A stretch of DNA of 56,503 bases from IMG/VR virus record IMGVR_UViG_3300042780_000007, one strand, 5' to 3'. Source of the stretch: a virus. Below, in pieces: positions 14,906 to 19,748 of the stretch. The position numbers were made by a program, and so were the translations under genes. The first letter of the stretch is position 1; each line of letters begins with the position of its first letter. A model generated the notes under the pieces. The model saw nothing but the letters and a program-made list of their open reading frames with translations. It was not told where the DNA came from and made no database searches.

Positions 14906-16206
14906 AATACCAATCCAGGCAATAATGCATTAATGTTTGCCTTTTTGGGTTTAATCATTTTCACATTATTACCAACATTCTTTTCTTCAAAGTAATCCTT
15001 GTTGATAAGAGATTTAATATGTGATCTGGCGGTACTTTCAGAAGTGTGAGTTGCCATGCCAAAGGAAGCCGACATTGCACGCAAACCAACCCAACCACCT
15101 TCTGCTGTGGACATCTTCTCGTATTCATCCATCAAAAGCTTGAGGTGTGTCTTCTCTTTCTGAACCCCGTCATCCTTCTGTCTTGTAGAAACTTCAAGGA
15201 GTGTGAGGATTGAAGCCATTGCAGGTTTTATCATAGTTTCATATGCATAGTTGATATCTTCATTTTTGATATTTGTCCTTCCATGCATTACTGCATGGTG
15301 ACAGGCAATTACATACATTTGATTCTGATATCTAGGCACAAATCCATTATACAACTTCTGGATGGAATGTGAAGAATATATTGCAATATCATACAGGCTA
15401 CGCACACGATTTTTCAGGAGTGGTTTTACTCTACTGAAATCAAAGGTAAGTTTCTTGCGTCCTGCGGTCTGAATCTTCTTCAAGTGTTTCATGATCTCAT
15501 CATCATAATCCACAATCTCGGAGTCTTCACCAAGATTATCAATATCCATCTGGGAATTGTTCACCCTGTCCTGATAAGTAAGTTCCTTGGGAACCATGAA
15601 CATTCTGGGCAGGAGTCCGGTATGTACGACCAGAGATTCGAATTTTTCAGGCACGTAAGAGGTGAAGAAGAAACTGGAATGTACTGGAAGTTCAATGGGG
15701 TCTCCATGAGCAAGTTTCTTTTTGATAATATTTGATGGTGTGCCTATTGGATTCATTGCCATCTGGAAATACAACTTCATATTTTCATTGTTGTTATTTG
15801 TATTCAGCAGGACTTCGGCTTCATCGAAATGAATAACATCCGAAGAGGCAAGAATACCTGGGCAATGTTCATATTCAGTTACCTTATCATTATATTCATT
15901 GTACTTGGTAACCTGTTCTACGGTTCCCAAAAGTGCAGCATCCGTGGCTGCCCCTATCGAATTATGTTCCATACTCAAATCTTTCATGCAATTTACAATA
16001 TAATCCAGTGCTACGGACTTGCCGGAACCCGTATCCATCATTACCCATGGATGTATCCTACAATCTATAATCTGTCCTTTTTTCTTCACGCTCTGATATC
16101 TCAAACACTGTCCAATAATAAGGTGTAGGGCTGCACGCCCGAACAACCTATTATTATATGAATAGTCAGAGAATCTTTTATCCCAATATTCAATAAGTTC
16201 ATGCAT
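14902..16206 (-). CDS. MCM-like AAA+ helicase with no recognisable N-terminal domain
   Basis: Start moved to ATG 16206, overlapping the end of nrdD. Walker A DTGSGKS, PGILASSDVIHFDE (Walker B), GLLPRMF (arginine finger), wHTH-like C-terminus. Confidence 0.7.
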   Translation of the reverse strand: MHELIEYWDKRFSDYSYNNRLFGRAALHLIIGQCLRYQSVKKKGQIIDCRIHPWVMMDTGSGKSVALDYIVNCMKDLSMEHNSIGAATDAALLGTVEQVTKYNEYNDKVTEYEHCPGILASSDVIHFDEAEVLLNTNNNNENMKLYFQMAMNPIGTPSNIIKKKLAHGDPIELPVHSSFFFTSYVPEKFESLVVHTGLLPRMFMVPKELTYQDRVNNSQMDIDNLGEDSEIVDYDDEIMKHLKKIQTAGRKKLTFDFSRVKPLLKNRVRSLYDIAIYSSHSIQKLYNGFVPRYQNQMYVIACHHAVMHGRTNIKNEDINYAYETMIKPAMASILTLLEVSTRQKDDGVQKEKTHLKLLMDEYEKMSTAEGGWVGLRAMSASFGMATHTSESTARSHIKSLINKDYFEEKNVGNNVKMIKPKKANINALLPGLVL

Positions 16207-18139
16207 CGTATGTTTCTCCCTCTGTATCGTAATGCTGTCTGTTTTTCCATTCGGTTTCCTTGGATGGATGGTACTTGGATATTCTCTCCACATATCCGGT
16301 TATCCTCTGCATATAATCCACAATTTCGGCTCCACATTTCGGGCATTCTTCGTGTTTGCCTATTGTACCATGTTCATTCCTACAAATGGAGAACACTGGA
16401 GACAGAGCAAAGTAACCAAGGTCTGTATTGCACATTTTTATAACAAGGTCTTTCACGCCTTCGGGGTGTGGTGAATTCTCTCCAATGAAGAAGAGCAAGA
16501 TATTACCACCATCACACAATTTATGGAAAGGAGCTTCAGCCATTATCTTCTCTGGCAGGGAAAGTCCATCATCATATGGTACGTGAGTGGCTGGTGCATA
16601 TTCAAAATCATGATCATCCGTTCCGTGGATGGACAGGGATGTCTTGTCGTCTCCATATTCCCGACGTATGTACTTGATATTGCCTCTCACCATGTGATTG
16701 TTGGAAGATTCATTGGGTGGAGCTTCTATTCCCCATTGTGGAGCATCGGGTTCATCCATCCATGTAGATATTATGTCCTTGGTGAAATGAATAACTGCCT
16801 GTGCAAATTCATTGCCCTGCTTGCCTTTCAATCCATTCTCGAATCCCATGTGGACAAGCATATCATGCAGGAAGGCTGTGCCTACCAGAAGTCTCCTCTT
16901 CTCCGGATCATAATATTTGATTCCGGAAGGTGTTTCTTTTGCCAGCCAAGAGTTAATGCCCCATTCATAAATGGAATCCCTTACCATGTCCTGTAGGTTC
17001 TCTCCGGTTTCTTTAATGATCCGAAGCCTGTCGGTCAGAATTGTCATGAATTCCCTTTTCATAGTATCATAGAACAAGGTCTGGTACTTATCCTTATCCA
17101 TGGTAACTATATCACCGAACATTCCAGAATCCAGTTTGGCTTCGGCAATCTTACGGGCTTCATAACCGATAATTGCATAATTCATGGTTATTATCCTGTC
17201 GGAACCCGTGCCCATTTCTCCACCTGACCAAATACCACCCATGGTATCAAACTTGACTCTTACCCTGCAGCATTGGGAAGATACGCAATCTTCATCTCCA
17301 CCATCTGCCTGCATGTAATCCGGAGACAAATTTACAATATACAGAGAACCATTATGAGCCATAGTCTCGAAGGCTTCAGTCCACAATTGAGAATCCCAAT
17401 CAGAATCAGGTGTGACTGTGGTGGCGACCAATGGATAGGTAAATGGTATTCCACCCTTCATGCCTTCTCTCAAGATTTCCATGAACACGGAGGCAATAAT
17501 TTCTGCATATGCTTGTATACTTACATGGGAGTATGTAATTTTATGATCTTTATTTATTTCATCGTACAACCCTTTATCCCCATCAAATATGACCGGACGG
17601 TTTTGCAAGGGTTTCGGACATTCAAAGCGTATTCCTGTATTGATGAAAGGGGGTTTTCCACCAGTACGGGTTATTTGATTGCAATTGTAAAAGAACTTCT
17701 GGAGTTCCTGTTTGATTTCATTTCTTTCCAGTCTGTCGGCATATGCATAGGGAGCAAGGAACCAGTTCACCCAATCCATGGACTGTGCGCCTGCAAAATG
17801 TCCCTGCGAGTACATAGCAAAGGAGTATAAGTGGTCGATGGCAGAACCGAGATGGGATGCTGGGTATGCCTTGAGGGTTGGTAAATCCAATCCTGCCGAG
17901 AGGGGGATTGTGGGATCGATACTGTTGCAGTATGGTCCAATCTGGTCTGAATCATGTACATATATCAAACCATCCTCGTGTGCCTGTTTGGCTTCTGGTG
18001 AAAGGAAATTATTCATTATAAAATTACGTATTTCGTATGAACCAAAAAGGGTCATCATTTGCTGATGACTCCTTGATTCACTGGCATTGGACTTGTCTTC
18101 TGCCCCGTACAGATATTCTTCAATCGTCAACTTAGTCAT
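16199..18139 (-). CDS. nrdD: Class III (anaerobic) ribonucleoside-triphosphate reductase
   Basis: IYVHDSD, YCNSID, HFAGAQS, SQCCR finger loop, CxxH...CxxC Zn site, glycyl-radical loop RITGY. Confidence 0.93.
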   Translation of the reverse strand: MTKLTIEEYLYGAEDKSNASESRSHQQMMTLFGSYEIRNFIMNNFLSPEAKQAHEDGLIYVHDSDQIGPYCNSIDPTIPLSAGLDLPTLKAYPASHLGSAIDHLYSFAMYSQGHFAGAQSMDWVNWFLAPYAYADRLERNEIKQELQKFFYNCNQITRTGGKPPFINTGIRFECPKPLQNRPVIFDGDKGLYDEINKDHKITYSHVSIQAYAEIIASVFMEILREGMKGGIPFTYPLVATTVTPDSDWDSQLWTEAFETMAHNGSLYIVNLSPDYMQADGGDEDCVSSQCCRVRVKFDTMGGIWSGGEMGTGSDRIITMNYAIIGYEARKIAEAKLDSGMFGDIVTMDKDKYQTLFYDTMKREFMTILTDRLRIIKETGENLQDMVRDSIYEWGINSWLAKETPSGIKYYDPEKRRLLVGTAFLHDMLVHMGFENGLKGKQGNEFAQAVIHFTKDIISTWMDEPDAPQWGIEAPPNESSNNHMVRGNIKYIRREYGDDKTSLSIHGTDDHDFEYAPATHVPYDDGLSLPEKIMAEAPFHKLCDGGNILLFFIGENSPHPEGVKDLVIKMCNTDLGYFALSPVFSICRNEHGTIGKHEECPKCGAEIVDYMQRITGYVERISKYHPSKETEWKNRQHYDTEGETYDA

Positions 18140-19185: not shown

Positions 19186-19187
19186 TT

Positions 19188-19748
19188 TTACTCTCCGTGT
19201 TGTTCTATAATTTCTCTGATCGCCTGATGAACGTCCATGATTGATTGATTACCATCTACCTTGTGATAAATTGGCATAAGTTGCCTACCAATCATGTAAT
19301 TCGCCAGCCTCTCGTACTCTTCTTTTACTCTTTCTTGGAACTCGACCTTGCCATATATATCGTCTTCGGTAACAAACGGGGTACCCGTAAGAATAATCAC
19401 GATATCTGTTTTGATATATGAATCAATAAGGTGATTAATCCTGTGTAGCCACTCCTCATCAAGTCCTTCAGCAATACCATAAGCGATGCCTGACTGGTAC
19501 CACCTGTCGAAGATTACCAGACCATCTGTTTGGTTTATCTTATGTTGTGTCTCAATCTTATTCAAGGTCATTAATGCCTGAAAAGACACAGGTTCATAGG
19601 GTAGGACTTTATTCAGGATTTCCCTGATTACCTTACCACTATAAAAATCCTCATCTGGGTACTTTACTTTTTTGGCTCCCATTCCTACAAGCAAATCTGC
19701 CTGTGTGGTCTTTCCTATTTTATCTGGTCCTTCAATTACTACACGCAT
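19188..19748 (-). CDS. tmk: Thymidylate kinase-family dNMP kinase
   Basis: VIEGPDKIGKTTQ P-loop; FDRWYQSGIAYG. Confidence 0.88.
   Translation of the reverse strand: MRVVIEGPDKIGKTTQADLLVGMGAKKVKYPDEDFYSGKVIREILNKVLPYEPVSFQALMTLNKIETQHKINQTDGLVIFDRWYQSGIAYGIAEGLDEEWLHRINHLIDSYIKTDIVIILTGTPFVTEDDIYGKVEFQERVKEEYERLANYMIGRQLMPIYHKVDGNQSIMDVHQAIREIIEQHGE

Follow-up and report, generated by a model that had tools for sequence, protein, structure and literature searches.

We analysed a complete-looking tailed-virus genome of 56.5 kb (IMG/VR record IMGVR_UViG_3300042780_000007; 56,503 nt, hereafter the window), with ~40% G+C (60% A+T) and a long leftward replication arm, in which genes for a thymidylate kinase (Tmk)-family kinase, a PurZ-like adenylosuccinate synthetase homologue and the anaerobic ribonucleotide reductase NrdD constitute a single translationally coupled operon segment. 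The virus replicates with a family B DNA polymerase (PolB). The block would serve as a precursor supply line for DNA rich in Z:T pairs (Z, 2-aminoadenine) under anoxic conditions, a reading to which we assign a probability of about 0.5. Two gene sets for Z-DNA are known (PurZ/DatZ/MazZ/DpoZ and PurZ0/DutZ/DmtZ/DUF5664), both from bacterial phages, and in these the phosphorylation of the Z deoxynucleoside monophosphate (dZMP) is left to the host; the block looks like a third route to Z precursors, as yet undescribed. The idea that the block supplies dZTP is coherent, the gene linkage on which it was to be judged is conserved in related viruses, and the interpretation is partly supported.

A coupled kinase-purZ-nrdD block

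The block and the gene that follows it comprise the following features, with protein lengths in amino acids (aa):

19188-19748, minus strand: Tmk-family (type I-like) nucleoside monophosphate (NMP) kinase, 186 aa; opens the coupled block (PF02223)
18136-19185, minus strand: PurZ-like adenylosuccinate-synthetase homologue, Ser-type and GTP-donor-type, 349 aa (Adenylsucc_synt)
16199-18139, minus strand: NrdD, class III (anaerobic) ribonucleoside-triphosphate reductase, 646 aa (PF13597)
14902-16209, minus strand: P-loop ATPase ('helicase'), 435 aa, with Walker A and Walker B motifs; its ATG overlaps the nrdD stop

The first three genes have family assignments by Pfam (Thymidylate_kin, 6.9e-16; Adenylsucc_synt, 1.7e-48; NRDD, 6.4e-88), and the PHROGs assignments agree. 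When the junctions were read directly, the TAA stop of tmk was found to be followed, after a 2-bp gap, by the ATG of purZ, while purZ and nrdD meet in an ATGA overlap. This bears out the adjacency described in the original prediction and leaves the three genes translationally coupled. The same prediction had the block leading into a helicase. The next gene does share 8 nt with nrdD (ATGCATGA, again read directly), an overlap that places its start most likely at 16209 (435 aa) and not at the upstream ATG at 16293, and its product carries Walker A (MDTGSGKS) and Walker B (HFDEAE) motifs. The helicase assignment, however, finds no family match: the protein hits no Pfam, PHROG or NCBIfam model, the sole lead being DUF3987/SF3-like viral clusters in the ESM Atlas, one of them with DUF3987 in 11% of its members.

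NrdD is intact, with the active-site Cys pair (SSQCCRVR), the C-terminal glycyl-radical motif (RITGY) and the C..H..CPKC metal site; it scores 296 bits with PF13597 and 287 bits with TIGR02487, the latter under the cut-off of 326. The Pfam scans of the window detected neither a radical-SAM nor a Fer4 family, and as they also revealed no gene for the activase NrdG, the host NrdG would be needed.

Conservation of the linkage had been named beforehand as the point on which the supply-line idea would stand or fall. We find it conserved: one relative shows the adjacency, and at least seven related viral contigs have both genes. The relative with visible gene order is a 6.2-kb contig (L104, JAQVCP010000121.1) in which PurZ is 60%, NrdD 70% (to the start of the L104 gene) and Tmk 37% identical to the window proteins. 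Its genes run thyA-like, PD-(D/E)XK nuclease, primase-polymerase, tmk, purZ, nrdD, with tmk and purZ overlapping by 8 nt. Further co-occurrence rests on matching contig sizes, gene order being visible in the window and L104 only: searched against 1.84 billion representatives, Tmk has its nearest homologues on contigs measuring 53602, 57310, 55800, 5826 and 60374 bp, and the same sizes are recorded for the contigs of the PurZ homologues P0017, P0005, P0003, P0004 and P0008, respectively. Counting L104 and the window, both tmk and purZ occur in seven or more diverged viruses, whose PurZ proteins are 51-63% identical. With the addition of one from a 2.4-kb contig, the linked kinases number eight and group in one clade (SH-aLRT, Shimodaira-Hasegawa-like approximate likelihood ratio test, 80). 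Megablast of the block against phages gave no match, and IMG/VR scans with PurZ (as a single protein), the primase-polymerase and NrdD returned no close relatives.

A departure from this pattern, which counts against the supply line, is seen in a relative with a PurZ 52% identical to that of the window (L025), where a methylase-like fragment, not tmk, lies directly upstream of the PurZ-like gene. We checked this fragment as a possible C-terminus of Tmk, and it is not one. L025 also encodes a family B polymerase with a LAGLIDADG intein (2744-5989), located 1.5 kb downstream of its PurZ-like gene and between that gene and an N6/N4 DNA methyltransferase gene. As for L104, the contig was binned in a Hespellia sp. 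metagenome-assembled genome (MAG), in which the viral protein is the sole Tmk-family match, and its genes have TAG-free stops; the contig is viral and the Hespellia binning probably wrong.

The Tmk-family kinase and its substrate

By sequence and predicted fold the kinase is a thymidylate kinase. It scores 58.9 bits with PF02223 (cut-off 27) and 61 bits with the equivalog model TIGR00041, under that model's cut-off of 83.25. Its AlphaFold2 model (mean predicted local distance difference test score, pLDDT, 95.4) has as top Foldseek matches the human, Plasmodium falciparum, yeast, Candida and vaccinia virus Tmk (template modelling score, TM, 0.80-0.87). The P-loop (GPDKIGKTT) and D81-R82-W83 are retained, R82 being invariant across 152 homologues. 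An ordinary role for such an enzyme is provided by two overlapping genes elsewhere in the window:

43662-44351, plus strand: thymidylate synthase homologue (ThyA-like), short 'methanogen' type, 229 aa (PF00303, 8.9e-13)
44348-44662, plus strand: small MazG-like NTP pyrophosphohydrolase, 104 aa (phrog_2245, 'NTP pyrophosphohydrolase', 6.6e-5)

The ThyA-like protein matches TIGR03283 (thy_syn_methano) over nearly its whole length (71.6 bits, under the cut-off) and keeps the catalytic Cys (PC), RSHD (RSxD), the uracil-specifying Asn and HIY (H-x-Y). We considered it as a dUMP hydroxymethylase, which would turn the kinase into a hydroxymethyl-dUMP kinase, and set this aside as less likely because of the methanogen-type length and model and the retained Asn. 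The start of the MazG-like gene overlaps the ThyA-like stop by ATGA.

These genes suggest the strongest alternative to a dedicated dZMP kinase, an enzyme with the usual role of phosphorylating dTMP. The virus would then encode a complete anaerobic dTTP pathway, made up of NrdD, a MazG-like pyrophosphatase for dUTP/dCTP, the ThyA-like protein and Tmk; PurZ would be merely co-clustered, and a host kinase would phosphorylate dZMP. Several observations pull the kinase away from the supply line and towards this role. Pfam, NCBIfam and PHROG all place it in the Tmk family, and its top structural neighbours are all thymidylate kinases. The ThyA-like and MazG-like genes are ATGA-coupled, and in L104 a ThyA-like gene shares the block with tmk. 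Haloarchaeal viruses that do not use Z, such as HVTV-1, also carry PolB and Tmk. Finally, a Z:T genome of 60% A+T would itself demand much dTTP. Since the protein has the sequence and fold of Tmk and the virus is predicted to make dTMP, a dTMP kinase is the default reading, and a dZMP kinase is one that we infer.

Other observations are less easily accommodated by an ordinary dTMP kinase. In both genomes with visible gene order tmk is coupled to purZ, not to thyA, and the linked kinases are a single clade co-inherited with PurZ. Alignments to 1tmk and 2v54 place M60 and K64 where yeast Tmk has F69, which stacks on thymine, and R73, which binds O4. An SFQALMxxNK motif recurs in the PurZ-linked kinases, M60 and K64 are conserved throughout their clade, and the next-nearest unlinked homologues mostly have Gln and Arg at these sites. 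The substitutions also fall, though, within a broader FQAL[MQ]xxN[KR] subfamily, a point against reading them as a signature of dZMP use; because that subfamily is large, we regard M60/K64 as suggestive, not diagnostic.

A need for a viral dZMP kinase could arise from the host. In bacteria dZMP is phosphorylated by the host GMP kinase (bioRxiv 10.1101/2025.10.22.683976). Among our control genomes the Guanylate_kin family was found in 10/10 bacteria versus 0/4 archaea, and all four archaea have Tmk and PurB. The archaeal controls thus have a Tmk of their own and no canonical guanylate kinase (Gmk), which counts against an ordinary dTMP kinase. The fold itself can phosphorylate a 2-aminopurine deoxynucleotide: P. 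falciparum Tmk acts on dGMP about as well as on dTMP (PMC6366710), and its dGMP complex (PDB 2wwg) is among the top structural matches of the window kinase. The P. falciparum (2wwf/2wwg) and vaccinia (2v54) enzymes share the fold (TM 0.80-0.85) and are among its top sequence and structure matches. At 26% identity, the window kinase differs from them in having Met for Phe and Lys for Arg where the base is contacted, and Lys for Arg in the P-loop.

PurZ recurs with non-orthologous NMP kinases. ADK-family kinases are encoded in two more PurZ viruses, Bacillus phage vB_BpsS-140 (L128:174-1349), where the kinase gene adjoins a dut gene, and the metagenome locus L030 (2266-8793), which comprises an ADK-family kinase, a PurZ-like gene, DatZ and DnaG-DnaB. 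Together with co-inheritance, the base-contact changes and the lack of a canonical Gmk in the archaeal controls, the ADK-family kinases elsewhere provide new indirect support for a dZMP kinase. On balance, the kinase probably acts on dTMP. Physiologically relevant phosphorylation of dZMP, for which the argument is coupling to purZ in place of thyA and co-inheritance with PurZ, would be compatible with this activity and is a tentative suggestion, somewhat short of an even bet. The reading as an ordinary dTMP kinase comes nearly to even odds, and we consider it about as likely as a dZMP kinase.

The PurZ-like protein

The purZ call of the original prediction is reasonable. The P-loop of the protein (GLQYGSEGKGK) carries a Ser at the site of PurA Asp13 and aligns with the PurZ proteins of phiVC8, S-2L, SH-Ab and Bm1. 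The catalytic Asp13 is conserved in 99% of PurA, and Ser is found in every phage PurZ or PurZ0 (PMC12884076). In our data the Ser is invariant in an 18-sequence alignment of the clade and present in all 120 nearest database homologues. A structure-guided alignment further revealed two motifs, YPIRVAGNSG and TTVTNRVRR, that are common to PurZ and PurZ0 (phiVC8, S-2L, SH-Ab, Pumancara); bacterial and Pyrococcus horikoshii PurA have TRVGxGPFP and TTGRxRR at the same sites. The donor pocket reads M-F-A-D, its Asp being that of PurA (TKLD) and PurZ0 (TMLD) and not part of the ATP-type pocket, N-F-x-Q/N, seen in S-2L (N305-F306-x-Q308, where Q308 clashes with a 2-amino group) and phiVC8 (N297) (PMC8342488). 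GTP is therefore the predicted donor. The protein also matches phrog_1211 ('2-aminooxy adenylosuccinate synthetase') at 1.9e-62.

In a 67-row tree, with PurA represented by bacterial sequences, a split with 100% support divides the Ser-type proteins from PurA. The window protein is placed in a distinct 17-row clade (SH-aLRT 92) that includes neither the PurZ proteins of phiVC8, S-2L, SH-Ab and Bm1, which make up another clade, nor Pumancara PurZ0, which stands separately on a long branch. A DutZ-like gene directly follows the PurZ-like gene in 26 of ~100 Ser-type metagenome loci, so Ser-type genes beyond the described phages do occur in Z-type clusters, and the clades that neighbour the window protein are flanked by DutZ or DatZ genes.

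The PurZ-like protein could instead be a PurA-type auxiliary metabolic gene product of archaeal or candidate phyla radiation (CPR) descent, converting IMP to adenylosuccinate and boosting adenylate in a virus with ordinary A-containing DNA, for which DatZ would be unneeded. The scores leave room for this. The PurZ model NF038379 reaches 226 bits, under its cut-off of 300, and the archaeal PurA model NF003295 is slightly higher at 242.5 bits, though also under its cut-off (368) and without support from the catalytic Asp. PDB E-values are alike, ~1e-39 to 1e-38, for 7vf6 (PurZ0), P. horikoshii PurA and phiVC8 PurZ, and identity to the protein of any isolated phage is at most 35%. Three CPR genomes have a Ser-type protein as their sole PF00709 homologue, which means that Ser alone is no proof of dGMP specificity. 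The lack of DatZ, DUF550, DUF5664, DutZ and DmtZ in the window points in the same direction, away from Z. Set against this are the replacement of Asp13 by Ser here and in all of the nearest homologues, the PIRVAGNSG and TVTN(R/K) motifs that are those of PurZ/PurZ0 and not of P. horikoshii or bacterial PurA, the DutZ and DatZ genes that flank the neighbouring clades, and the deoxynucleotide setting of the gene, which has a dNMP kinase on one side and a ribonucleotide reductase on the other. We consider a PurA-type role unlikely, and a true dGMP-using synthetase probable by about two chances to one.

The three CPR genomes (L108, L111 and L112; G003-G005) belong to Saccharimonadales, Saccharimonadia and Paceibacterota, and their proteins carry GSEGKG and PIRVAGNSG. 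In the Hespellia and Actinophytocola genomes the Ser-type protein is accompanied by a canonical PurA.

dATP clearance, the proposed pathway and the host

The original prediction found no DatZ, and this holds and extends to DUF550, DUF5664, DutZ and DmtZ. Pfam scans of ~110 open reading frames (ORFs) on both strands, small and TAG-read-through ORFs included, found no HD/YfbR-like protein, DUF550, DUF5664, dUTPase (PF00692) or nucleoside deoxyribosyltransferase. We then used Z-phage references (S-2L DatZ and MazZ, SH-Ab 15497 DUF550-DUF5664 and DatZ, Bm1 DatZ, Pumancara gp47 and DmtZ-DutZ) in phmmer and hmmsearch --max against all 996 stop-to-stop frames of at least 30 aa. These gave noise (E > 0.2), and of all Z-phage queries the PurZ queries alone matched. 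Hidden Markov models (HMMs) built from 26 DutZ-like and 3 DatZ proteins likewise returned only noise across all frames of the window, while the 3-sequence DatZ HMM recovered, as a control, the DatZ in metagenome locus L030, which Pfam confirms. None of the four described pool-clearing classes is present.

This absence is a point against the supply line, as it fits an ordinary A genome equally well, and every characterised PurZ or PurZ0 phage clears dATP somehow (PMC12884076). Z phages that lack DatZ are nonetheless known: PurZ0 phages use DutZ/DUF5664, and DUF550, DutZ and DUF5664 each act on both dATP and dGTP (PMC12884076). With no known dATP-removing enzyme, exclusion of dATP must rest on the MazG-like protein, possibly with a HAD-type phosphatase, or on the polymerase, or be incomplete. 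The two further features concerned are:

24491-24802, minus strand: minimal HAD-type phosphatase, 103 aa (phrog_1238, 1.2e-21; HAD-IIIA-like NCBIfam matches)
25896-28244, minus strand: family B DNA polymerase with exonuclease domain (PF00136, PF03104), the only replicative polymerase found

The MazG-like gene lies 25 kb from the kinase-purZ-nrdD block. Its product has MazG/PRA-PH clusters as ESM Atlas neighbours (feature score 0.93, structure TM 0.83), and its motifs HEETSEL...KEVADV (EExxE, ExxD) occupy the same positions as in S-2L MazZ, a protein of nearly the same size (104 versus 105 aa). It has no Pfam match, as is also the case for the published MazZ-2 group, which lacks a Pfam model (PMC12884076). 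In direct comparison with S-2L MazZ, BLAST matches EVADV only and phmmer finds nothing; tblastn finds no match in phages, and a search of 5.8 billion proteins retrieves only the protein itself. A poor single-sequence AlphaFold2 model (predicted TM-score, pTM, 0.35) gave no Foldseek match, and VIA-align returned coiled-coil noise. The original prediction assigned this protein the making of dGMP. The gene exists and such a step is needed, as NrdD yields triphosphates and a pyrophosphohydrolase is required for both dGMP (for PurZ) and dUMP (for ThyA). However, the gene is coupled to the ThyA-like gene and not to purZ, and none was seen in the 6.2 kb of L104, both of which count against the supply line; the coupling may indicate dUMP/dTMP supply in place of, or besides, that of dGMP. 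Its position favours a pyrimidine job, though one enzyme could serve both ends.

The HAD protein has all four HAD motifs (DFDG...T...K...DD) and is a candidate nucleotide phosphatase with a weak link to the pathway. In nine loci (L054, L060, L064, L065, L066, L071, L074, L076 and L091) a HAD gene lies directly upstream of a PurZ-like gene in an abutting HAD-PurZ-DutZ arrangement. The nine represent one lineage (PurZ-like proteins 61-77% mutually identical), and their HAD proteins are 25-33% identical to that of the window; we therefore count the HAD link as about one event and down-weight it. A HAD phosphatase is absent from the accounts of Z clusters in two recent papers. Speculatively, conversion of dATP to dAMP by the MazG-like protein and of dAMP to dA by the HAD protein would equal the net effect of DatZ.

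PolB has its best isolate matches in haloarchaeal tailed viruses, and the Pfam scans turned up no PolA or DpoZ. That Z is made while A is not excluded, the absence of a dATPase and a non-discriminating PolB yielding partial substitution, is improbable: all known dATP-clearing families are absent and most polymerases do not tell A from Z (PMC8342488), but the characterised PurZ/PurZ0 phages all remove dATP (PMC12884076), and the specificities of the MazG-like and HAD proteins could matter.

The family-level gene identities, the coupling, the conserved linkage and the lack of known dATPases are observed, whereas what each enzyme acts on, and whether the DNA contains Z, are inferred. The supply line that we favour would operate as follows. 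NrdD, activated by host NrdG, would convert NTPs to dNTPs. A pyrophosphohydrolase, for which the MazG-like protein is the sole candidate found, would convert dGTP to dGMP and dUTP/dCTP to dUMP. The PurZ-like protein would join dGMP and aspartate, with GTP as donor as in PurZ0, and host PurB would release dZMP, while the ThyA-like protein would make dTMP. The Tmk-family kinase would make the diphosphate of dTMP and, about as likely as not, also that of dZMP, in a host that likely belongs to a class lacking canonical guanylate kinase. Host Ndk would finish the triphosphates, and PolB would incorporate them.

The host is probably a methanogen-like archaeon that decodes pyrrolysine, not a bacterium. 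This assignment draws on the lack of TAG stops, the methanogen-type ThyA, the affinity of PolB and Tmk to haloarchaeal viruses, and a disaggregatase-repeat match among the tail proteins. TAG terminates none of the 73 window genes (42 TGA, 31 TAA), none of 10 in L104 and none of 7 in L025, and when the TAG at 36211-37722 is read as sense, a GHKL ATPase domain emerges across it. The closest isolate matches of Tmk, like those of PolB, are in haloarchaeal viruses: the replication modules of HVTV-1 and HCTV-1/5 resemble that of the window in having both PolB and Tmk, which are its best isolate matches at 22-29% identity. No PurZ-like match to a haloarchaeal virus was seen among 218 phage-collection records, and Haloarcula was not among the top organisms there.

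Compared with the PurZ-DatZ-MazZ(-DpoZ) clusters of phiVC8, SH-Ab 15497 and S-2L, the window is alike in its Ser-type PurA homologue, its PIRV..SG and TVT motifs and its dependence on host PurB. Unlike these, it lacks DatZ, has a GTP-type donor Asp in place of the ATP-type Gln/Asn, and encodes PolB, not DpoZ or PrimPol; purZ has the genes for the Tmk-family kinase and NrdD as its neighbours, the MazG-like gene is distant and coupled to thyA, and PurZ is ~31% identical and in a separate clade. With the PurZ0-DutZ-DmtZ-DUF5664 clusters of Arthrobacter and Gordonia phages (PMC12884076) it shares the lack of DatZ, the GTP-type donor Asp and YPIRVAGNSG, and the PurZ0 structure 7vf6 is the best PDB match of its PurZ-like protein (1.6e-39). 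It differs in having no DutZ (dutZ is present in 98/98 PurZ0 genomes; PMC12884076), DmtZ, DUF5664 or DpoZ-1, in a PurZ-like protein that does not appear monophyletic with Pumancara PurZ0 in the tree, and in its probable archaeal host, those of PurZ0 phages being actinobacteria. What is new relative to these systems is the combination: PurZ belongs to a third lineage and has a donor site of GTP type, its partners are Tmk and NrdD, replication relies on PolB, known dATPases are missing and the host is probably archaeal.

The boldest version of the supply line would make this lineage the first among archaeal viruses to have a 2-aminoadenine genome, with a third independent Z pathway in which the Tmk-family kinase is a viral dZMP kinase replacing a guanylate kinase absent from the host, fed by NrdD, copied by PolB, and with dATP cleared by the MazG-like and minimal HAD proteins. 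We consider it a long shot. A lineage in which a PurZ-type gene is joined to a viral NMP kinase and a class III reductase, with PolB for replication, none of the known dATPases and an apparently TAG-recoding archaeal host, would bring archaeal viruses into the range of Z genomes, point to new dZTP-pathway enzymes of use for Z-DNA in vitro and in vivo, and bear on the proposed archaeal origin of PurZ.

Two minor observations concern the surroundings of the block. We looked at the 138-aa ORF directly upstream of tmk (orf138, 19753-20169) as a possible further enzyme of the pathway and discarded it. It matches no family, and in a 99%-identical strain (L024, 3147-3404) its counterpart is 85 aa long, having lost an internal segment and gained a short tandem duplication; orf138 is probably dispensable. 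Further along the replication arm lie two YopX-family genes (22880-23320 and 24067-24513), the second of which reaches upstream to 24636 when TAG is read through.

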